DNA of 64,000 nucleotides from a virus. The notes beneath the pieces were generated by a model. It was not told where the DNA came from and ran no database searches. It saw nothing but the letters and a program-made list of their open reading frames with translations. The position numbers were made by a program, and so were the translations under genes. Positions 2,775 to 39,172 of this stretch are shown here, piece after piece. Numbering within the stretch: the stretch's first letter is position 1; each line of letters starts with the position of its first letter. The DNA lies in the IMG/VR virus record IMGVR_UViG_3300007722_000005, positions 1 through 64,000 of that record. One strand, given 5' to 3'.

Positions 2775-3074
2775 ATGTCACAATTACTGAACGAAATCAA
2801 AGAGTTAGTCCGCAAGAAGCTGCGAGATGCTAAGCTGGGGAAGAAGAAATCCGCTGCTACCCGCCGCAAGATCTCACGATCTATGCAGGGGAAGTCGAAT
2901 TTCGAGGGGAAGAAGCACACTCGCGGCACGAAGGAGAAGATGCACCGCTCCCGCGGCAAGGATGATCAGGGGAAAGTCGGCGGCAGCCGCTGGTTCAAAC
3001 CTACGGCGTATACATCTTCGAAGCCAGATCGCCGCAGCCGGGCTGCACCTCAGGGTTACGTGCACGGCCGCTAA
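2775..3074 (+). CDS. Basic NUMOD3-like repeat protein under a late promoter
   Basis: TATAAATA at 2743-2750, SD GGAG; K/R-rich motifs KKSAATRRKIS and KKHTRGTKEKM. Confidence 0.6.
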   Translation: MSQLLNEIKELVRKKLRDAKLGKKKSAATRRKISRSMQGKSNFEGKKHTRGTKEKMHRSRGKDDQGKVGGSRWFKPTAYTSSKPDRRSRAAPQGYVHGR

Positions 3075-3382
3075 CTCAGTAACGTCGCGGCGGCCTTTCA
3101 TATCAGTTTAAGTTAACGCTGCGGGGTGCCCGAATCGGTCACCTAATAGTCCCATTATAAGTGCAACGTTCGCTGTAGTTATGTTGTATCAGTTTAAGTT
3201 GACCGACGTCGAGCAACGAACGAACGCCCTTTCTGGGCATCTAATCACCCAACAACGAACGGAACGAATCGTATCACCGCGCGCGGCACGACAAAAGAGT
3301 GACGAGATATCGTCAACAACAATCTCTGTGGTCGCGTGCGCACATGCAACAACACCTCTCTCTCTGAGTGACGGTGTTGACT

Positions 3383-30659: not shown

Positions 30660-30754
30660 TGGTGCCCCCGCCCGGATTCGAACCGAGATCATGCGCCAAT
30701 CTAGCGCCAATGCCGAGGTATAAGCTCGGAGTTTTACCGTTAAACTACAGGGGT
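30660..30754 (-). tRNA. tRNA-Ile(UAU) with long extra arm
   Basis: CCGAG CT TAT AC CTCGG; T-loop TTCGAAT; encoded CCA. Confidence 0.8.
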
Positions 30755-30756
30755 TT

Positions 30757-30831
30757 TGGAGCTCCAGGACAGAGTTGAACTGTCTTTCGCACTTTACCAA
30801 AGTGCAGTAATAACCATTATACTACAGGAGC
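30757..30831 (-). tRNA. tRNA-Thr(GGU)
   Basis: Cloverleaf, CCA. Confidence 0.85.
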
Positions 30832-30908
30832 GTTAATAAGTCCAGCCTAAAACTTTCATCAATTTCGTTTTGACTCTAATGCTGGTGCGTTAATTATCCA
30901 CATAATTT

Positions 30909-30981
30909 TGGCACCCCATGAAGGAATTCAACCTCCGCAATCAAGGGTAGAAACCTCGACGCCGACATCATCGGATGGGGC
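30909..30981 (-). tRNA. Atypical tRNA-Arg(UCU), mini D-arm
   Basis: 7-bp acceptor, CCGA TGATG TCGG D-hairpin, loop TT TCT AC, CCA. Confidence 0.65.
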
Positions 30982-31484
30982 ATTGTTAAAAGTTAAAATC
31001 CTGTTATTTGTACAGCTATAAAAAATATCCTATAGCAACTATAACGAACCACTCTGTCAGTGAAAATTGGTAACACCAACTCGGCAGCTTGAATGCAATA
31101 TATTCAAATATTTTGTCAAACATTTTAGTAGTGCCTTTCGTTTGGATGAAGTCGCCAAAATAACCGGCTCGCTTTCTCTGGCGCTTTGTGGTAAACATCA
31201 AACCAATATTCGTGCACAATGTCTAGCTTCTGGTTCTTCTGCTTGTGCCCGATCCAATAGGGGTTCGAATGGCCACGAGGGCGCCACGTTTTTTCGTGGT
31301 AATTCCTGCGTAGTTGCCTGTCGAGGAATCTATACCCCCACATATCAGACGTTCAGGTGCTTCTTGAGAGATTCGAGCTCGCGCTGTTTCCGAGCAACAT
31401 ACTTCTCATTATCAGGGTAAGCTATTTTGAAACGCTCAAGTGCACCTTTACGACGTTCCTGACGACGAATAAAACTATTCTTGA

Positions 31485-31874
31485 TCATTTTAGCTGGTCC
31501 TCCATCTCATTAAATGCTCGACTAAGTTGTACCGATGCTATCTGAACAAGTTTTGGATCCTTGAATCCAAAATTATCAGGTAGATTTAATGTTATCACGT
31601 GTTTGTCGGCAAGGTCGAATTCGCTCGAAGTTTCCTCGAAATTCTCTTTGTTGACAAACACAACAGCATCGGACCAATGAATCAGAACGTCGTCAGCGTG
31701 GATCAACGCAAATGTTTTTGTTGACCCTGCTGCACGTGTGTTGAAGTTGAATGGATCGTTTGATAGAATCCAAGCGACGGTCGGGGAGCGTAGCAGTCCA
31801 GCTGAGCACACACAAAGAACCTTTAACGAAGTTCCTTGGTGAGAATTAGTAGAATTGTGTTTTCTGTTATTGAT
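31485..31874 (-). CDS. LMW protein-tyrosine-phosphatase-like protein (probable AUC start)
   Basis: VLCVCSAGLLRSPT CX5R loop; SD AAGGAG followed by ATC. Confidence 0.75.
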   Translation of the reverse strand: MNNRKHNSTNSHQGTSLKVLCVCSAGLLRSPTVAWILSNDPFNFNTRAAGSTKTFALIHADDVLIHWSDAVVFVNKENFEETSSEFDLADKHVITLNLPDNFGFKDPKLVQIASVQLSRAFNEMEDQLK

Positions 31875-31968
31875 GATGAACTCCTTTTTGATGAAGGTTT
31901 CGTAACTGTTTGAATATGACTATTATACGTTTTTTTTACAAAAGGTCAACAATTTTAAATTTCAAAAG

Positions 31969-32043
31969 TGGAGCAGGTGGCGGGGATCGAACCCGCGACA
32001 TTCACGTTGGCAACGTGGCATTCTTCCGCTGAACTACACCTGC
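31969..32043 (-). tRNA. tRNA-Gly(GCC)
   Basis: Cloverleaf, U73, CCA. Confidence 0.9.
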
Positions 32044-32077
32044 GTTATTACATTTCTTCGTGTGTGCTTACGCTTGT

Positions 32078-32155
32078 TGGTACCCCCGGTCGGATTCGAA
32101 CCGACACTGTGCAGGTTTTGAATCTGCTGCCTCCTACCAATTGCGCTACGGGGGC
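32078..32155 (-). tRNA. tRNA-Leu(CAA), short variable loop
   Basis: Cloverleaf, CCA. Confidence 0.85.
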
Positions 32156-32167
32156 ATAGTTTTTGAT

Positions 32168-32238
32168 TGGTACCCTGAGTGAGATTCGAACTCACAAAAG
32201 CTGGTTTAGGAAACCTGCTCCCGTCCATTGGTCAGGAT
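32168..32238 (-). tRNA. Atypical tRNA-Arg(CCU), reduced D-arm
   Basis: Loop TT CCT AA; normal T-arm; CCA. Confidence 0.65.
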
Positions 32239-32239
32239 G

Positions 32240-32632
32240 TTATGTATGTATTATTGCTGAGGCGATATACTTCTGTATCTTAGCAGGTACGTTATGTGCT
32301 TTATTCATTACATCGGTCATTGTGAACTCGCTCGTGATTCCTTCTCGTGCGAAACTATATAGCGTTCCACCTGGGTGCTCAGTAGCGAGTATCTTCAACA
32401 TACCGGCATCAGTAGCTGGAGCGTTGACTGCTGTTTTCTTGATCTTTACCGCCTGTGCAATGCCCATTGTATCTCGGAGCATAGACATCACCTCAGAGGG
32501 ATCAGCATTGCGCATTACAGACAACACTTTACCGACGAGGACGTTGATGGCCTTATCTTTTCCAGACTTTACTTGCTCAACGGTCTTTTGATTGTCTGCA
32601 ATGACTTGGGTAATTAGTTCTTCTATTTTCAT
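32240..32632 (-). CDS. Protein with GatB/YqeY C-terminal-like segment
   Basis: VEQVKSGKDKAINVLVGKVL...ADPSEV. Confidence 0.55.
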   Translation of the reverse strand: MKIEELITQVIADNQKTVEQVKSGKDKAINVLVGKVLSVMRNADPSEVMSMLRDTMGIAQAVKIKKTAVNAPATDAGMLKILATEHPGGTLYSFAREGITSEFTMTDVMNKAHNVPAKIQKYIASAIIHT

Positions 32633-32640
32633 ATGAATTT

Positions 32641-32730
32641 TGGCGGAGAGTAGAGTAGTCGAAACCCATTCCATTCCTGGAACCAACTGTTTTCGAGGCA
32701 GTGTCGTCAATCCCTGACAATTTACTCTCC
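32641..32730 (-). tRNA. (8/4) tRNA-Ser(CGA)
   Basis: 8-bp acceptor GGAGAGTA/TACTCTCC, 4-bp T-stem, long variable arm. Confidence 0.8.
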
Positions 32731-32907
32731 ATTAAGTATTTTAGCGTCTTTCTCGCTGAGAGGAGTGCAACAATCTACCTTCAACTCTTCGTATGGAAGC
32801 TTTCTGAATATACGATCCCAACCTTCACGATAAGCATTGGTCGGTTGTTTCGTTTTCAGTTCGTCGCCAGTGATGTCGTTTTTTGATGTCATAATCTATT
32901 TGTGTAG

Positions 32908-32983
32908 TGGTAGTGACCGTGGGAGTCGAACCCACCTATTCTTCCTTATGAGGGAAGCACATAAGCCGCTCTGTCAGGTCACT
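32908..32983 (-). tRNA. tRNA with CAU anticodon (Met or Ile2)
   Basis: CTTCC CT CAT AA GGAAG; CCA. Confidence 0.8.
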
Positions 32984-32988
32984 GCTGT

Positions 32989-33062
32989 TGGTGGTTCCAA
33001 GAGGAATCGGACCTCTATATTCGCCATGTCAAAGCGACACTCTACCATTGAGTTATGGAACC
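32989..33062 (-). tRNA. tRNA-Val(GAC)
   Basis: Cloverleaf, CCA. Confidence 0.8.
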
Positions 33063-33069
33063 TAATTTA

Positions 33070-33145
33070 TGGGGTGATCGACGAGATTCGAACTCGCGCT
33101 ATCTGATTCACAATCAGAGGTGCTGACCTTTACACTACGACCACC
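33070..33145 (-). tRNA. tRNA-His(GUG)
   Basis: G-1:C73, cloverleaf. Confidence 0.9.
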
Positions 33146-33151
33146 ATTGTT

Positions 33152-33224
33152 TGGTAGCGGCCGAGGGTAACGATCCCTCTCCCATCGCAGGTTATGAGCC
33201 TGGAGTCTACCACTAGAAGCCGCA
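33152..33224 (-). tRNA. Atypical tRNA-Met(CAU), mini D-arm, 1:72 mismatch
   Basis: TCTA GTGG TAGA D-hairpin; CAGG CT CAT AA CCTG; CCA. Confidence 0.65.
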
Positions 33225-33246
33225 ATAGTCTTCTTTACTTCAATTC

Positions 33247-33323
33247 TGGTGCGCGGGCAGAGAATCGAACTCTGCAAATCCCACTTGTAAGGAGGGTGGT
33301 GTCACCAGCTACGCTCCCCGCGC
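33247..33323 (-). tRNA. tRNA-Val(UAC)
   Basis: Loop CT TAC AA; CCA. Confidence 0.75.
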
Positions 33324-33379
33324 TTTGCGTGAAGTTATAAGGTTGTCAAGCCAACCTTCTCAAATCATGAGATGAAAAT

Positions 33380-33456
33380 TGGTCGGAGTACAAGGATTCG
33401 AACCTTGGACCCTCTGCTCCCAAAGCAGATGCGCTGCCAGACTGCGCTACACTCCG
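33380..33456 (-). tRNA. tRNA-Pro(UGG)
   Basis: Canonical cloverleaf. Confidence 0.92.
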
Positions 33457-33461
33457 AAACT

Positions 33462-33535
33462 TGGTGCCCCTTGACGGAATCGAACCGCCGTAAGCTGCTT
33501 ACAAAACAGCCGTAATACCATTATACTAAAGGGGC
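33462..33535 (-). tRNA. tRNA-Thr(UGU)
   Basis: Canonical cloverleaf. Confidence 0.9.
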
Positions 33536-33555
33536 AAATTATATTAATTACTTTT

Positions 33556-33590
33556 CTAAGTCAACTACTCGACCGCTGAGCTATCGAGTA
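33556..33590 (-). pseudogene. Remnant 5' half of a tRNA
   Basis: TAGCTCAGCGGTCGAGTA D-arm plus GTTGACT, no 3' half. Confidence 0.45.
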
Positions 33591-33607
33591 ATAATTCTAT
33601 TTATAGT

Positions 33608-33804
33608 CTACGTTTCTTCCATTCCTGACGCTCCAGAGAGGCTTACACAATTTGGATCCTCTGCAATTACCGCAACAAACCGCATGTGGATGCTTCGCAA
33701 CGTTGCTGCAATCGAAAGAGCGTCGCTCAAATCGCTGGCAACGTGGCCTTGTGTTACACTATCAAGCGTTGTCCAATATACTTTATATTCAGCTTTGTTC
33801 ATAT
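33608..33804 (-). CDS. Hypothetical protein (start probably MNKAEY)
   Basis: KVYWT...FVAVIAEDPNCV. Confidence 0.5.
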
Positions 33805-34045
33805 GTTTTACTTGTGACACTATCGTTTAAGCCCGCTCAGGCCCGCACCCTCGAGGTATGTTGACCATATTTGCAAGACTCCTATGTAGCTTTCATAGGC
33901 GTAACGCCACAAGTAAAACATTCGGCTCAGTACACCGAGAGGTATGATGAGTATCCTTTATGGTGTAGGGGACGTCCAGGCACATCACCGCGGTACACCA
34001 TTTCATCTTCTTTTGTTGCACTAAGGCGAAGAATCTTCAGAAGGT
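33803..34045 (-). ncRNA. Candidate structured RNA
   Basis: 20-bp helix 33803-33822/33902-33921 with G-U pairs; further hairpins; own promoter upstream. Confidence 0.5.
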
Positions 34046-34119
34046 AACCTTTTCAACAATGTCTATTATACTACCATTTAAAGAATAGTCAACACTTTTC
34101 TTTTTATTGTTAATTCGGC
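34046..34119. repeat. 74-bp direct repeat (copy 1) containing minus-strand promoter TTGACT-16-TATAAT
   Basis: Copy 2 at 35548-35621, one mismatch. Confidence 0.9.
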
Positions 34120-34710
34120 TGTGTACTTCTCTTTAATTCTGTGAAGCTGTCCCGTTGCCCACTCCAAATTCCTGATGTATTGGTGTTGTTCAGAAGTTTG
34201 TTGAACACCAACAACGGTGTTTAACCGTCGGTCAAAAAACTCTTCTGGCATGTTGTCGTGTGTTATTATAGTTCCTCTTGTAGGGAAGAATTGAACATAT
34301 CTGCGCATGAATTCATTCCACTGTTCAATATGTTCAACAGGAGCTGTAAAATTAAATAGTTGAATTTCTGTTGATATCCTGAAACCAAACTGTTTTGCAA
34401 GAAGGAAGCTGAGTCCTGCTTGAACCATATCTTTTTCGACAACGAAAATTTCGTGCCGTGTTGTTTTCATCACCTTTTTGTACCACGCAATTGATTGTGG
34501 GAATCGGCAAAGATGATGGCCATGCAACTTTATAACAGTGTTTCCATTGTTCAAGCGATGAAGTAACCAATATTTTCGAAATACTGATGCAAAATTATCA
34601 TCGTAACGAGGTGCAAACGGCTCATAAATTTTGTTTTGTCGTTTGCACGAATGAAAAATAGCGCTACCATCTGTGCGGCGGTGGCTGTAAATTATTACTG
34701 GGTTTTTCAT
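34078..34710 (-). CDS. Sulfotransferase/P-loop-like hypothetical protein under a late promoter
   Basis: SHRRTDGSA...YEPF; TATAAATA at about 34734-34741. Confidence 0.5.
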   Translation of the reverse strand: MKNPVIIYSHRRTDGSAIFHSCKRQNKIYEPFAPRYDDNFASVFRKYWLLHRLNNGNTVIKLHGHHLCRFPQSIAWYKKVMKTTRHEIFVVEKDMVQAGLSFLLAKQFGFRISTEIQLFNFTAPVEHIEQWNEFMRRYVQFFPTRGTIITHDNMPEEFFDRRLNTVVGVQQTSEQHQYIRNLEWATGQLHRIKEKYTAELTIKRKVLTIL

Positions 34711-34742
34711 AACACATCCTTTTTGAGATGTATTATTTATAA

Positions 34743-34819
34743 TGGTGCGAGTCATGGGAGTCGAACCCACACTGACCAGGTTTTAAATCTGGCGCCTCTT
34801 CCAATTGGGCTACACTCGC
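34743..34819 (-). tRNA. tRNA-Leu(UAA), short variable loop
   Basis: Cloverleaf, CCA. Confidence 0.85.
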
Positions 34820-34825
34820 GAAACT

Positions 34826-34900
34826 TGGAGCCCTGTGACAGATTCGAGCTGTCCTCTGAACTTTACGAAAGTTCTGTGTCGCCGTCTACACTTACGGGGC
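34826..34900 (-). tRNA. tRNA-Thr(CGU)
   Basis: Cloverleaf, CCA. Confidence 0.8.
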
Positions 34901-34906
34901 AAAACT

Positions 34907-34982
34907 TGGTGCGTCCCACAGGAATCGAACCTGTTTCAATGGCTCTTCAAACCACCGCTATGACCACATCAGCTAGAGACGC
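34907..34982 (-). tRNA. tRNA-Phe(GAA)
   Basis: Cloverleaf, CCA. Confidence 0.85.
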
Positions 34983-35018
34983 AAATATCTCCGTTACACT
35001 ATTTGTAGCTATTAAATT

Positions 35019-35092
35019 TGGAGACTCGAGACAGAGTTGAACTGTCATCTTCGGGTTTGCAATCCGAGGCACGGCCGTTATACCACCGAGTC
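35019..35092 (-). tRNA. tRNA-Cys(GCA)
   Basis: Cloverleaf, U73, CCA. Confidence 0.85.
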
Positions 35093-35098
35093 ATTGTT

Positions 35099-35175
35099 TG
35101 GTGCGCGAGGTGGGACTCGAACCCACAGAACCTACCCTCTCAAGATAGTATGTTTACCAATTTCATCACAAGCGC
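35099..35175 (-). tRNA. tRNA-Leu(GAG), short variable loop
   Basis: Cloverleaf, CCA. Confidence 0.85.
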
Positions 35176-35184
35176 GTTGTTAGT

Positions 35185-35264
35185 TGGTGGAGTGAAAGAG
35201 AGTCGAACTCTAAGGCTACTAGTATGAGCGACCGCAAGGTCGCCGCCGCGATCCGAACCACCCC
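35185..35264 (-). ncRNA. Ala-identity tRNA-like RNA resembling an isolated tmRNA tRNA-like domain
   Basis: G3:U70, A73, CCA, T-loop TTCGACT, stemless D region TTCGGATC. Confidence 0.55.
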
Positions 35265-35269
35265 GTATT

Positions 35270-35342
35270 TGGTACCCCATGAAGGAATTTAACCCTCGCA
35301 ACTGAGCTTCGAAGGCTCTGCGCCGACATCATCGGATGGGAT
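35270..35342 (-). tRNA. Atypical tRNA-Arg(UCG), mini D-arm
   Basis: Same CCGATGATGTCGG hairpin as 30909; loop CT TCG AA. Confidence 0.65.
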
Positions 35343-35345
35343 ATT

Positions 35346-35417
35346 TGGCAACGGTGCACGGAGTCAAACCGTGTTGTATTTCCTTCAGAGGGAAAACCAG
35401 CTTCAAGCTTCACCGCA
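35346..35417 (-). tRNA. Atypical tRNA-Gln(CUG), mini D-arm
   Basis: AGCT TGA AGCT hairpin; TTTCC CT CTG AA GGAAA; CCA. Confidence 0.65.
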
Positions 35418-35425
35418 ATTGTTCT

Positions 35426-35502
35426 TGGTGCCCTAGAGGGGACTCGAACCCCTAAAATCTACATTCTAAGTGTAGCACGTATGCCAATTCCGTCACCAGG
35501 GC
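35426..35502 (-). tRNA. tRNA-Leu(UAG), short variable loop
   Basis: Cloverleaf, CCA. Confidence 0.85.
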
Positions 35503-35547
35503 AATATTATTTAGATGTTATTAGTGTTGGTGTTTCCACGTTCACTC

Positions 35548-35621
35548 AACCTTTTCAACAATGTCTATTGTACTACCATTTAAAGAATAGTCAACACTTT
35601 TCTTTTTATTGTTAATTCGGC
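35548..35621. repeat. 74-bp direct repeat (copy 2), internal array promoter
   Basis: Matches 34046-34119. Confidence 0.9.
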
Positions 35622-35642
35622 CTTGCGGCTCTCGCGTTGTAC

Positions 35643-35719
35643 TGGTGGGGGTAGAGGGATTCGAACCCACAATGACCCAGATTCAAAGTCTGGTACGCTT
35701 CCAGTCGCGTGTTACCCCT
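35643..35719 (-). tRNA. tRNA-Gln(UUG)
   Basis: CCAGA CT TTG AA TCTGG; CCA. Confidence 0.8.
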
Positions 35720-35725
35720 ATTGTT

Positions 35726-35799
35726 TGGTACTCCGGGAAGGAATCAAACCTTCGTGGGCCCCTTATCAAGAGGCTATCTTATCATTAGATGACCGGAGC
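35726..35799 (-). tRNA. tRNA-Ile(GAU)
   Basis: Cloverleaf, CCA. Confidence 0.8.
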
Positions 35800-35805
35800 A
35801 TATTT

Positions 35806-35895
35806 TGGCGGAAAGCAGAGCGATCGAAGCCCAAACCCTTTCAGGTTCCAACCGATTAGCAATCGGCGCCGCACTCCATGCGCAATTTACTTTCC
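35806..35895 (-). tRNA. (8/4) tRNA-Ser(GCU)
   Basis: 8-bp acceptor, 4-bp T-stem, long variable arm. Confidence 0.8.
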
Positions 35896-35900
35896 AAATA

Positions 35901-35976
35901 TGGTCTTTCAGGTGAGACTCGAACTCACGAAATCTTCGCCCCAAACGAAGTGGTATAGCCGCTAACCGACTGAAAG
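35901..35976 (-). tRNA. tRNA-Pro(UGG), second copy
   Basis: CTTCG TT TGG GG CGAAG; CCA. Confidence 0.8.
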
Positions 35977-35984
35977 ATATTCAT

Positions 35985-36140
35985 TCCGTGTTTTCTATAG
36001 CACGGAGTATAACTTACCGGAGCCCATATAACCGTCATCAAGTGACTCGGTCTTATGAACTCCGACGTAGATTTTATTATTCACGAGTTAGTGATTTGAT
36101 AGAGGCAATATTTCATGCCTCTATCGATAATAGATCTACT
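35985..36140 (-). ncRNA. Candidate three-domain structured RNA
   Basis: Helices GTAGATCTATTAT/ATAATAAAATCTAC, GATAGAGGCA/TGCCTCTATC, GGAGTTCATA/TATGGGCTCC, TCCGTG/CACGGA. Confidence 0.5.
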
Positions 36141-36145
36141 ATGTG

Positions 36146-36217
36146 CTCCATCTCCTGGGATCGAACCAGGGACCTAGCGATTAACAGTCGCTTGCACTAC
36201 CGCTGTGCTAAGATGGA
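36146..36217 (-). tRNA. tRNA-Asn(GUU), CCA not encoded
   Basis: Canonical cloverleaf ending G73-CAC. Confidence 0.85.
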
Positions 36218-36223
36218 ATAACT

Positions 36224-36318
36224 TGGCTCCGCAGAGAGGCTTCGAACCTCTATATTGCGCCTTTCGGCCTTTACGTCTCATTAACAGTGAGGTCTCTTAC
36301 CAATTAGAGTACCGCGGA
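36224..36318 (-). tRNA. tRNA-Asn(GUU) with long extra arm
   Basis: Loop CT GTT AA; about 24-nt variable region with GCC GAAA GGC; CCA. Confidence 0.75.
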
Positions 36319-36369
36319 ATAAATCTTTATAATTCATATATCTCGTTGGAAATACATCAATTATAACGA

Positions 36370-36448
36370 TGGTGGGAGCGCCGGGATTCGAACCCGAATC
36401 TATCAGATTAAAAGTCTGTTGTGTTAAATCCGTTGACACCACACTCCC
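36370..36448 (-). tRNA. tRNA-Lys(UUU)
   Basis: Cloverleaf, CCA. Confidence 0.85.
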
Positions 36449-36518
36449 ATTTGTTTACTACGTTTACCATCTTTCGATTTTCGTTTCATATCAAGATCCT
36501 TTTTTGATAAATATTAAC

Positions 36519-36677
36519 ATGCAAAAACTACAAAATTTTAAAGCCTTCTTTCAGCGCAATAAAAAGCAGGCTGAAGCCGAACCCCACACTGGCCCCGATC
36601 GTCGGAAAGGACCACGTCGCACTGTGACGAAGATTAAAACAAACTATACCGCGTGGCATGATCGCCGTGCTGCATAA
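36519..36677 (+). CDS. Small basic protein antisense to the tRNA array
   Basis: ATAAATA late-like promoter just upstream of ATG; MQKLQNFKAFF N-terminus. Confidence 0.45.
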   Translation: MQKLQNFKAFFQRNKKQAEAEPHTGPDRRKGPRRTVTKIKTNYTAWHDRRAA

Positions 36678-36680
36678 TGC

Positions 36681-36761
36681 CAAGAGTGTCCTAGGCCACT
36701 AGACGATCTCGCACACGCCAGTAGCGTGGGTCGAGTGGGATTTGAACCCACGTCTCTCTTG
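36681..36761 (-). ncRNA. Circularly permuted tRNA-like RNA (YrlA-like module) A
   Basis: Order T-arm, closed acceptor-like hairpin, D-arm; closing stem CAAGAG/CTCTTG. Confidence 0.65.
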
Positions 36762-36764
36762 TTC

Positions 36765-36840
36765 TGGCGCCGAGGACGGGGATTGAACCCGCCTGAGAAT
36801 GATCGACAGTCATCCTGTATCCCCAGATAGCTACCTCGGC
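36765..36840 (-). tRNA. tRNA-Asp(GUC), atypical D-arm
   Basis: Loop CT GTC GA; G73; CCA. Confidence 0.7.
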
Positions 36841-36871
36841 AAATATGGAGTTGCGTAAACGCAACATTGTT

Positions 36872-36999
36872 TGGGACGCGATGGTGAGGTTTTCACTCAC
36901 GACGATTTACAAGATCGCTATCAGCTTTACCCCTCATGGTTGTAACCCCACTACTCATAAAGCATTCCTGTGGACTCGGTCACCACAGCTTCACCGCGT
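36872..36999 (-). ncRNA. Oversized (128 nt) CCA-ending tRNA-like RNA
   Basis: 8-bp acceptor ACGCGGTG/CATCGCGT, T-like arm GTGAG/CTCAC, three internal arms. Confidence 0.65.
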
Positions 37000-37000
37000 T

Positions 37001-37074
37001 TGGAGCACCTGCGCGGATTCGAACCGCGTTCAATAGTTTGGAAAACTATGTCCTCTCCCAGGAGCGACAGATGC
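37001..37074 (-). tRNA. tRNA-Gly(UCC), atypical D-arm
   Basis: ATAGT TT TCC AA ACTAT; CCA. Confidence 0.75.
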
Positions 37075-37108
37075 ATTAGTTGAATGTCGACTATTTATAA
37101 TATTGTTT

Positions 37109-37183
37109 TGGCGGCCCTGCACGGAATCGAACCGCGTTGGCTGGTTTTGGAGACCAGTGCATCACCTTTCATGCTTCAGGGAC
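37109..37183 (-). tRNA. tRNA-Trp(CCA)
   Basis: CTGGT CT CCA AA ACCAG; G73; CCA. Confidence 0.85.
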
Positions 37184-37194
37184 ATAATTTAATT

Positions 37195-37283
37195 TGAGCT
37201 AAGACAAAAAGGACTCGAACCTTCGCTTTCGCCAGAACCAGTTGTGCACCTACGTCTATAAACGTTTCCACAACCTTCTCAGC
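37195..37283 (-). ncRNA. T-arm-containing tRNA-like RNA without CCA
   Basis: GCTGAGA/TCTTAGC closing stem; GAAGG TTCGAGT CCTTT; long irregular hairpin. Confidence 0.45.
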
Positions 37284-37351
37284 AACATGCAAACCCTACA
37301 TTATATCAAATTCACACAACAATTATAGTTGCAAGTGTGAACCTCAAAACT

Positions 37352-37435
37352 TGGTGGTTGTGGTAGGATTCGAACCTACTCAGCTAGTGGGCCACTGATT
37401 TACAGTCAGCTTATCTCTCCAAGGAATGCACAACC
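37352..37435 (-). tRNA. tRNA-Tyr(GUA)
   Basis: Loop CT GTA AA, long variable arm, CCA. Confidence 0.8.
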
Positions 37436-37452
37436 ATTGTAATACGAAATCT

Positions 37453-37526
37453 TGGTGGTTCTAGAAGGTAACGATCCTTCGTCGCACGATTATCAGTCGT
37501 GTGCTCTACCTTTGAGCTACAGAACC
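37453..37526 (-). tRNA. tRNA-Ile(GAU), second copy
   Basis: Cloverleaf, CCA. Confidence 0.85.
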
Positions 37527-37532
37527 TAAAAG

Positions 37533-37603
37533 GCGGGAGTGTCCTACCACTATACGATTACCCTCACGAGGGTAAGTGGAAATCGAATCCACGTCTCTTT
37601 CTT
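37533..37603 (-). ncRNA. Circularly permuted tRNA-like RNA (YrlA-like module) B
   Basis: GTGGA TTCGATT TCCAC, TTACCCT CGTG AGGGTAA, TCGTATAGTGGTAGGACA. Confidence 0.6.
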
Positions 37604-37607
37604 TACT

Positions 37608-37682
37608 TGGCGGTCCCAAGGGGTAACGATCCCCTTCTTCGACAGTGACAGTGTCGTGTGCGTCCATGAACACTTTGGAACC
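37608..37682 (-). tRNA. tRNA-Asp(GUC)
   Basis: Cloverleaf, CCA. Confidence 0.85.
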
Positions 37683-37694
37683 GAATGCAATAAC

Positions 37695-37786
37695 TGGCGG
37701 AGAGCAGAGGAGTCGAACCCCATCCCCTTTCGGGGAACCTAGTTTTCAAGGCTAGTCGACACACCAACGCGTCTGCATTACTCTCC
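37695..37786 (-). tRNA. (8/4) tRNA-Ser(UGA)
   Basis: 8-bp acceptor, 4-bp T-stem, long variable arm. Confidence 0.8.
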
Positions 37787-37794
37787 ATTAATAC

Positions 37795-37869
37795 TGGTGC
37801 ACCCGAGGAGAATCGAACTCCCTTTCGCAGATTGAAAGTCTGCTGTCCTAACCGGTAGACGACGGATGC
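37795..37869 (-). tRNA. tRNA-Glu(UUC)
   Basis: Cloverleaf, CCA. Confidence 0.9.
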
Positions 37870-37950
37870 ATAATTCGCAGGCGTATTCCGGAGCAGCTCA
37901 CGCAAGGTGAGTGCCCATTGAGTCATCAACTCAACTTACGCCATTGATCT

Positions 37951-38025
37951 TGGTGGGCCCTGTGGGATTTTAACCCACATCGTCTCGGGTAAGAGCCGAG
38001 TGTAATAACGTTATACGAAAGACCC
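37951..38025 (-). tRNA. tRNA-Lys(CUU)
   Basis: Cloverleaf, CCA. Confidence 0.8.
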
Positions 38026-38031
38026 ATAATT

Positions 38032-38105
38032 TGGAGCGGGATAGGAGAATCGAACTCCTTTAACTAGTTTGGAAGACTAGGACACAACCAATATGCCAAT
38101 CCCGC
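38032..38105 (-). tRNA. tRNA-Gly(UCC), second copy
   Basis: Cloverleaf, CCA. Confidence 0.85.
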
Positions 38106-38111
38106 GTTGTT

Positions 38112-38186
38112 TGGTGGAGGCCGAGGAAATCGAATCCTTCTAGTCAGAATCCTTGCAAAGGATACCCGTAACCCATTACTGCCCCC
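38112..38186 (-). tRNA. Atypical tRNA-Ala(UGC), mini D-arm
   Basis: G3:U70; GTAA TGGG TTAC hairpin; loop TT TGC AA; CCA. Confidence 0.7.
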
Positions 38187-38402
38187 AATGTTCTTAATTA
38201 ACAGCAATTTTGCAACTATCCAAAAATGCTTTCAATTAAGGAGTAGGCCGTCCCCACTCAGATCTCTTTTACTCTTCCTGTTTACGCCAGGAATTTCATC
38301 CAGACCGCCGCCAAATTGGAGATGTTTAAAGTGCCTCCGCGAATCGCGTTTCCGTACACTTTACTTCAAAAGAACGATTACTTCTTTGTTACTAGATTGA
38401 CT

Positions 38403-38430
38403 ATTATCAACATTTTAAAACAAAAGTCAA
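38403..38430 (-). promoter_or_regulatory. Array-proximal promoter TTGACT-16-GATAAT
   Basis: GTTGACT motif shared with the other early promoters. Confidence 0.55.
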
Positions 38431-38458
38431 CAGTTATTTTAAATCCTTGATTCTACAA

Positions 38459-38493
38459 CAAAAAACCCCAAGTCTTTCGATCTTGGGGTTCTT
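38459..38493 (-). terminator. Intrinsic terminator / attenuator hairpin
   Basis: AAGAACCCCAAG-loop-CTTGGGGTTTTTTT. Confidence 0.85.
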
Positions 38494-38516
38494 TTTAAAA
38501 GAGATCTGATACTACC

Positions 38517-38627
38517 TTATCTCATAAGAACCCCGATCGCTTCATCACTACGGCCAAACCATGAGCAAATCCCTGGCGCATTATATGCGGCGGGTTGGCT
38601 TAATGTTTGTGGTAGTGTTTTATTCAT
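38517..38627 (-). CDS. Leaderless 36-aa leader peptide MNKTLPQTLSQPAAYNAPGICSWFGRSDEAIGVLMR
   Basis: ATG 7 nt after the -10 box; 3' codons complementary to the terminator 5' arm. Confidence 0.7.
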   Translation of the reverse strand: MNKTLPQTLSQPAAYNAPGICSWFGRSDEAIGVLMR

Positions 38628-38634
38628 ATGAAGC

Positions 38635-38663
38635 ATTATAGTACCTTTTGAAAGAAAAGTCAA
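38635..38663 (-). promoter_or_regulatory. Strong promoter TTGACT-17-TATAAT for leader and tRNA array
   Basis: Near-perfect sigma70 consensus. Confidence 0.85.
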
Positions 38664-38719: not shown

Positions 38720-39172
38720 TTAAAAGGTTTGATATTCGTCGGAAAACCACTTCTTGAAGTCGCCGTATAAATGTGCTTCAAGGTGTTCCGCTTCTTTTTC
38801 CCAGGGGCGATCGCGGTAATGGTCATCTTCCTGCAGCGACACACTAACACGGCGAGCTTTCCACATTGTGTGACATATTGATAATTCGCGCTTCGCATAT
38901 TGTTTGACGTGGACCATCTCGTGGGACAACGCCAATATGGGATCAATCGTCTTCTTGTTAATGTTAATTGTAAACTTTCGTGGCTTATCGTTAATAATCG
39001 ACGACGGGTAGCACTCTGCATAACAGCCATTTTCGATTGCTCGGAAGTTAATGGTCACCGTTAGTTTACGAGAAAGATTCACATGCATCAATTGTCCGGA
39101 ATAGAATTTGATTGCTTCACCAACTTCAAATTTCAACTTATCATCACGACAGTTGCGGATTATGAACTTCAT
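38720..39172 (-). CDS. HEXXH metallopeptidase-like protein
   Basis: LSHEMVHVKQY...PWEKEA. Confidence 0.75.
   Translation of the reverse strand: MKFIIRNCRDDKLKFEVGEAIKFYSGQLMHVNLSRKLTVTINFRAIENGCYAECYPSSIINDKPRKFTININKKTIDPILALSHEMVHVKQYAKRELSICHTMWKARRVSVSLQEDDHYRDRPWEKEAEHLEAHLYGDFKKWFSDEYQTF

Follow-up and report, generated by a model that had tools for sequence, protein, structure and literature searches.

The leader region and tRNA array of the window

The DNA analysed here (the window, 64,000 nucleotides) belongs to a 92-kb IMG/VR fragment of an uncultured T4-like phage from freshwater metagenomes, whose gp41 helicase is 57-63% identical to its cyanomyovirus counterparts. On the minus strand, a promoter (P1) is followed by a short leader ORF, an intrinsic terminator, a second promoter (P2) and a long array of tRNA genes (Table 1). 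The two hexamers of P1 are separated by a 17-nt spacer and match the consensus in 11 of their 12 positions in the promoter scan, and the consensus promoter described in an earlier reading, made from the sequence alone (hereafter, the sequence-only reading), is thus present on this strand with the coordinates of Table 1. The ATG of the leader (38627) lies only 7 nt past the -10 hexamer, which implies that the mRNA is leaderless or nearly so; the leaderless ATG and the 36 codons that follow it are likewise as that reading had seen them.

Table 1. Predicted features of the leader region and the tRNA array in the window
Feature	Coordinates	Strand	Basis or remark
P1 -35 hexamer, TTGACT	38658..38663	minus	promoter scan
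P1 -10 hexamer, TATAAT	38635..38640	minus	promoter scan
Leader ORF, 36 codons + TAA, MNKTLPQTLSQPAAYNAPGICSWFGRSDEAIGVLMR	38517..38627	minus	19 amino-acid kinds, no His
Antiterminator 5' strand, GATCGGGGTTCTT-AT-GAGAT	38519..38538	minus	codons 30-36 and first stop base
Antiterminator 3' strand, ATCTC ... AAGAACCCC-AA-GATC	38479..38505	minus	distal part doubles as 5' arm of the terminator
Intrinsic terminator, AAAGAACCCCAAG / CTTGGGGTTTTTT hairpin + U6	38460..38494	minus	fold -19.9 kcal/mol, z -6.0
P2, sigma-70-like, TTGACT-16-GATAAT	38403..38430	minus	promoter scan; between terminator and array
tRNA array	30660..38105	minus	ARAGORN 29 genes; Infernal 27, one of them extra

The leader, which ends in a TAA at 38519-38517, had drawn attention for containing 19 of the 20 amino acids, with His as the only one absent. 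The count is correct, but within the window alone it carries little weight (19 kinds in 36 residues, p ~0.04), so that its significance comes from the relatives described below. There is no tandem amino-acid repeat above two (AA) in this leader, and the codons of the relatives' leaders are dispersed in the same way.

The last codons of the ORF are also part of a predicted RNA structure. The segment GATCGGGGTTCTT itself (38538-38526, i.e., 7-19 nt upstream of the stop) pairs with AAGAACCCC..GATC (38493-38479), and GAGAT pairs with ATCTC inside that helix; in RNA form, GAUCGGGGUUCUU faces AAGAACCCC-AA-GAUC, with GAGAU and AUCUC inside. When the 3' arm of the terminator is omitted from the calculation, the fold of lowest energy is this antiterminator (-23.7 kcal/mol, z -4.0). 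The terminator, in turn, consists of a hairpin at 38494-38466 and a U-tract at 38465-38460, and since AAGAACCCC is common to both structures, they are mutually exclusive; the helices are the same as those of the mutually exclusive pairing proposed in the sequence-only reading. The whole leader transcript folds well (z -4.3). Folding also places two small hairpins within the ORF, neither of which overlaps the antiterminator. No variants within the element were found in four metagenomic DNA runs. As for the opposite strand, the terminator is symmetric (38455-38500), being preceded by an A-run and followed by a T-run, and could therefore also end plus-strand transcription.

Beyond the terminator, transcription of the array has further possible entries. 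P2 lies some 200-300 nt before the beginning of the array, and one or more promoters are found at the same place in the loci most like that of the window (L083-L087); in addition, at least three promoter-like sites with starts at 35594, 34092 and 31949 were found on the minus strand inside the array. Those at 34092 and 31949 were considered as further leader cassettes and rejected, since both head ordinary inserts with no attenuators. The inserts headed by the latter (31490-31949, minus strand) are protein-coding, and one of the ORFs has a CX5R(S/T) motif (VCSAGLLRS) of the kind usual in low-molecular-weight phosphatase or ArsC-type enzymes. The stretch between P2 and the first tRNA-like gene (38190-38400, minus strand) measures about 200 nt, and the corresponding spacer of L085 is similar in length.

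Regarding the array itself, the estimate of about 40 tRNA genes made from the sequence alone was too high, given that 29-30 genes in total are detected by the two tools of Table 1. A further gene resembling tRNA-Ala(UGC) was read by eye at 38112-38186; for Ala, Ser and Arg, which the leader uses nine times between them, ARAGORN found no tRNA in the window. Outside the main array, ARAGORN reports at 55844-55918 (minus strand) a tRNA with the anticodon CUA (given as Pyl), which would be of the amber-suppressor type, and similar genes also lie within the arrays of two relatives, L259 (from the record of L086) and L266 (from that of L218).

The gene at 38720-39172 (minus strand) encodes a 150-aa protein with a HEMxHVKQ (HExxH-like) motif and a PWEKEA segment, for which no significant match was obtained against Pfam. 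Many T4-like phages have it conserved immediately after gp41, often with a tRNA array behind it; the homologues in Melnitz and Cr30 have no adjoining tRNA array.

Conservation of the ORF and of the alternative RNA pairings

Relatives collected through gp41 were dropped as a set for leader alignment because, with identities of up to 63%, they were too distant. The element was instead searched for directly in IMG/VR with the pattern GGGGTTC-N15-45-GAACCC-N8-30-GGGTTTTTT, which forces the core pairing in this main sample. Eighty-eight loci match, and 68 of them have tRNA genes on the same strand within 1.2 kb downstream, whereas in bacterial genomes (596 Gb) the pattern occurs at about the chance rate and a tRNA follows in only one of 79 matches. 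Each of the 16 phage records examined holds a single copy of the motif, and the exact 30-nt terminator of the window is present in three other viral contigs. The motif subfamily is thus widespread, comprising at least 65 viral contigs and 28 clusters of leader peptides (<50% identity between clusters). The element is, nonetheless, absent from annotation, from Rfam and from cultured-phage records: BLAST searches of GenBank phages with the leader of the window and those of two relatives gave no match, and no Rfam family reached or approached its gathering score (the matches at E<=1 were limited to two tRNA genes and two weak ones of leader type, whose scores lay far below gathering). The gap between the terminator and the first tRNA is only 6-10 nt in several clusters; there the switch would be the sole entry to the array, and the terminator must be conditional if these tRNAs are to be made from that promoter.

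Several observations argue that the leader ORF is translated. In 65 of the 68 tRNA-linked loci, an ORF that begins with ATG and spans 20 codons or more stops within the 30 nt after the motif start, compared with 12% in shuffled flanks; within clusters, synonymous changes per site outnumber non-synonymous ones (pN/pS = 0.44); and the distance from a consensus or near-consensus TTGACA-17-TATAAT to the ATG is, as in the window, exactly 6 or 7 nt in 13 of the 28 clusters, while Shine-Dalgarno-like sequences occur at some other loci. From these sequence comparisons we infer translation of the ORF. The same data weigh on the idea that the locus encodes a non-coding RNA or a processing element (a small RNA or a structured 5' precursor) in which the ORF is fortuitous. 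The good fold of the whole transcript speaks for such an RNA, but neither the excess of ORFs, nor the constraint on their codons, nor the fixed +6/+7 position of the ATG relative to the -10 box, nor the correlation of amino-acid content with the tRNA repertoire (next section) agrees with it, and we regard it as highly improbable.

The only element common to all the leaders is the nucleotide motif GGGGTTC, which occurs in each of the three reading frames (GV, GF, GGS...). This points to its conservation as RNA, precisely where a terminating ribosome would sit: the stop codon is located 7-25 nt (mostly 11-15) after the start of the motif in every cluster, and 15 nt after it in the window, and the 5' arm of the terminator in the relatives lies 28-44 nt beyond the motif. 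The masking of the antiterminator by a ribosome at the stop codon was judged from these distances and the general size of the ribosome footprint.

Since the search pattern itself imposes the core helix, compensation was evaluated in the pairs that extend it unforced. These extensions amount to 2.43 contiguous pairs within a locus versus 0.85 across loci (permutation p<5e-5), with energies of -4.1 kcal/mol within the locus versus -1.8 kcal/mol when partners are taken from other clusters. In alignment A2, the first unforced pair is UA in 11 cases, GC in 7, UG in 3, AU in 2 and CG in 1, being unpaired in the other 4, and the covariation score (0.222, versus 0.135 +/- 0.019) was reached in none of 500 shuffles, all the slid controls being lower. 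The terminator stems covary across relatives too, as judged from per-locus hairpins, given that alignment columns fall out of register between CCC and CCCC stems. Furthermore, three loci found through the neighbouring 150-aa gene instead of the pattern (L108, L130 and L141) have different motifs, and the end of their ORFs still folds onto the 5' arm of the terminator. The conserved ORF and the compensatory pairing that the sequence-only reading had proposed to look for in related phages are therefore both present, and the attenuation architecture it described, in which the end of the mini-ORF provides the 5' strand of the antiterminator, is backed by conservation, covariation and geometry across some 65 phage loci.

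Could the leader simply be an ordinary gene for a small functional peptide that has a promoter and a terminator to itself, while the array is transcribed from P2? The position of P2 directly past the terminator, in the window as well as in L083-L087, would suit such an organisation, and so would the constraint at the peptide level (the pN/pS of 0.44) and a Trp that is nearly universal in the leaders, together with a frequent Cys. Nevertheless, the peptides are almost wholly different from one cluster to another, their sole common C-terminal "motif" is the RNA motif in its three frames, the antiterminator covaries, and the composition follows the array. In the many relatives whose first tRNA begins 6-10 nt past the terminator, moreover, a constitutive terminator would leave that gene promoterless. 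A plain small-protein gene is thus quite improbable.

Leader composition and the tRNA repertoire

For the comparison between leaders and arrays, the latter were filled out from the source records, and the start codon and the motif-encoded tail of each leader were excluded. The residues covered by the leader's own array add up to 406, versus 346 +/- 12 with arrays permuted among clusters (p<5e-5, although permutation values of this kind overstate the independence of clusters that are related by descent), and for the arrays serving 12 amino acids or fewer the figures are 113 and 80 +/- 6.7. Expressed by amino acid, presence in the leader is 90% if the array serves it and 50% if it does not (odds ratio 9.3), and the number of kinds in the array goes along with that in the leader (rho 0.79).

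The effect of shared ancestry is mitigated by two other comparisons, one within a lineage and the other against each phage's own genes. Within the single lineage of leaders beginning with "MKN...", the association between leader and array still holds (permutation p 1e-4): leaders contain Ala in all 5 loci with a tRNA-Ala and in 1 of the 9 without it, and Pro in all 6 loci with a tRNA-Pro and in 2 of the 8 without. Against the own genes, 318 leader codons are readable by the anticodons of the array, versus 256 expected from the long ORFs of the same locus (z 6.35), with a positive enrichment in 17 of 21 loci (Wilcoxon p 8e-5); the array-readable share is, for instance, 0.53 in the leader and 0.17 in the genes of L222, and 0.71 and 0.27, respectively, in L168.

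Individual loci illustrate this correspondence. In L222, a complete 162-kb genome, the array serves Trp, Tyr, Thr, Gly, Asn and Met, and the leader reads MKNLHITTSNYYNTSGTWCSGVRL; the array of L218 is limited to Cys, Phe, Gly, Ile, Asn, Arg, Ser and Thr, which make up 33 of its 43 leader residues; L104, with an array for Leu, Pro, Thr and Met, has the leader MKFNFTNLPLLNLPVQRGVLL; and L193, whose array lacks tRNAs for Asp, Glu, His and Tyr, has a leader without Glu, His and Tyr. There are mismatches as well, since the leaders of some relatives contain Cys or His with no matching tRNA and some arrays carry Glu tRNAs with no Glu codon in the leader. In the window, where tRNAs detected by ARAGORN serve 22 of the 30 core residues and the other 8 are Ala, Ser or Arg, the array has a tRNA for His and the leader has no codon for it.

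High amino-acid diversity, by contrast, had to be rejected as a universal rule. It is raised across the family as a whole (mean z +1.3; p<0.05 in 12 of 28 clusters), but not everywhere: L104, with 11 kinds in 21 residues, and L177, with 15 in 43, both accompany narrow arrays. The proposal that the leader samples almost every tRNA consequently holds for phages with near-complete arrays, whose leaders have 19-20 kinds, and fails for those with small arrays and narrow leaders. The leader composition mirrors its own array, and the "pan-amino-acid" leader of the window hence reflects a near-complete tRNA set. Two residues recur regardless of these differences: Trp is found in the leaders of nearly all of the 28 clusters, and Cys in those of most, even where no tRNA-Cys was found. 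A tRNA-Trp is present in nearly all arrays, often as the first gene.

This tracking bears on whether the leader might be a generic sensor of translation speed or stress, with codons that are not tuned to the array, akin to the uORF of whiB7 or to bmrB-bmrCD. A sensor of that kind would have the same three-strand geometry, with read-through as the default when no ribosome is present, and would need no tandem regulatory codons, in keeping with what is observed; leaders also often include residues for which the array has no tRNA (the 50% presence mentioned above), and precedents for uORF attenuators answering to general ribosome stalling have been published (PMC10274678, PMC4191407). However, a generic sensor predicts no tracking of the own array beyond what the composition of the proteome and the arrays of other phages would give, and such tracking is seen, which makes this explanation rather improbable. 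The match between leader and array repertoire points instead to a feedback on the very tRNAs that the array supplies.

A putative attenuator gauging tRNA supply

Taken as a whole, the comparisons make it likely that the element is a ribosome-mediated transcription attenuator that gates the read-through from P1 into the tRNA array, with the leader peptide acting as a gauge of tRNA supply, and slow decoding would probably lead the phage to raise its tRNA transcription. The predicted sequence of events would be as follows. As the conserved spacing suggests, the RNA would start from P1 at or next to the AUG, and a ribosome would translate the 36 codons close behind the RNA polymerase. If decoding is prompt, the ribosome arriving at the UAA would cover GAUCGGGGUUCUU..GAGAU, a step for which the geometry is apparent from the distances given above, whereupon the terminator would form and the P1 transcripts would end at 38460-38465. 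If the ribosome stalls at an earlier codon (approximately 2-25), the more stable antiterminator would form first and transcription would read through into the tRNA genes. With no ribosome loaded, the antiterminator and hence read-through would be expected as well, which is in line with the lack of a clear 1:2 protector hairpin, from which it follows that untranslated RNA should read through.

How much of the tRNA supply depends on this switch would differ among phages. In the window, P2 and the internal promoters bypass P1 with constitutive transcription, so that the switch would only modulate the share of transcription that comes from P1, and its physiological weight there may be small. The claim that it switches on the tRNA set is not supported for this phage, as those promoters can transcribe the array independently.

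The sequence-only reading had gone further and seen in the leader an inducible counter-defence switch, which would deliver replacement tRNAs upon damage of the host tRNAs by anticodon nucleases or toxins. As a primary function, this fits the logic of the stalled ribosome, a near-complete leader would report the loss of almost any tRNA, and a leaderless start would free the gauge from Shine-Dalgarno pairing. On the other hand, no defence-related evidence was found, the array of the window has bypass promoters, and the device also occurs, with narrow leaders, in phages that have only 4-8 tRNA kinds, a pattern that supply feedback fits better than broad damage sensing; we therefore hold counter-defence to be unlikely as the main role. 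A broader version, in which the codon set is a "barcode" for the tRNA repertoire of the phage and works as a self-calibrating gauge that couples array transcription to decoding speed and is at the same time an inducible answer to tRNA-depleting immunity or to phage-induced decay of host tRNAs, is a tentative possibility, with somewhat better prospects. On that reading the arrays would be regulated, demand-driven organs, not constitutive patches for codon usage.

The closest designs are the leader-peptide attenuators of amino-acid operons, such as trpL, hisL, leuL and pheL, the multivalent thrL and ilvL, and pheM of the pheST operon. In both, a mini-ORF near the promoter comes before an intrinsic terminator, one strand of which is also used by an antiterminator that a ribosome at the stop would mask, and the regulatory codons name what the operon supplies. 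Given that the leader draws on the amino acids and codons that its own array serves, the logic of the trp, his and ilv attenuators would here be applied to tRNA genes. Unlike the amino-acid leaders, the phage element belongs to a phage and regulates tRNA genes, is three-stranded with no clear protector hairpin, often has a leaderless start, and contains many regulatory codons, each used 1-4 times and with no tandem runs, which leaves its sensitivity to a partial tRNA shortage uncertain. There is also no sequence or Rfam similarity between the two.

Other known systems share only some of these traits. T-box riboswitches also report tRNA status through transcription attenuation, but they bind the uncharged tRNA directly, without an ORF, and control synthetase and amino-acid genes; the Rfam T-box model gave no match in the window element. 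In the mycobacterial whiB7 uORF (PMC10274678) and in bmrB-bmrCD of B. subtilis (PMC4191407), a stall in a short ORF prevents the terminator, as proposed here, and both respond to impaired translation in general; they differ from the phage element in that they control resistance or stress genes and that their leaders are not known to mirror any tRNA repertoire. The nearest published conditional tRNA array is the trn operon of Anabaena, a conditionally expressed array of 26 genes on a bacterial plasmid (PMC8421152), which is repressed by the ribbon-helix-helix protein TrcR (PMC10272220). It resembles the phage case in being an extra tRNA array whose expression goes up when translation is impaired, and departs from it in its protein repressor and its non-phage location; the words leader, attenuat- and terminator are all absent from the 2021 paper on this operon (PMC8421152). 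A full-text search of the literature, short of most subscription journals, returned no account of leader-peptide control of tRNA genes.

The proposed attenuator bears on why phages carry tRNA arrays and on how these are controlled. If it is real, tRNA genes would be under leader-peptide attenuation with a leader tuned to the repertoire of the array, an arrangement that we have not found in print. The composition of a leader would then predict which tRNAs a phage supplies, and a reporter of about 200 nt should respond to the shortage of defined tRNAs. This would also link phage tRNA biology to the sensing of translation stress and, possibly, to tRNA-targeting defence.

Finally, two observations were made at loci around the 150-aa gene. 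In L138 and L158, a terminator directly follows this gene, and the last codons of the latter are complementary to the 5' arm of the terminator (GAGG-a-TTTTG / CAAAACCTC; GGGTT / AACCC), so the stop-codon-linked antiterminator design may also be used after ordinary genes. In L104 (~3020-3100), L142 and L158, a conserved RNA-like segment of about 75 nt, ATGCGGT...CCACCGCTCCA(A/T)AT, lies downstream of the 150-aa gene, following a consensus promoter and preceding the tRNAs, perhaps representing an atypical tRNA or a structured RNA of some other kind.
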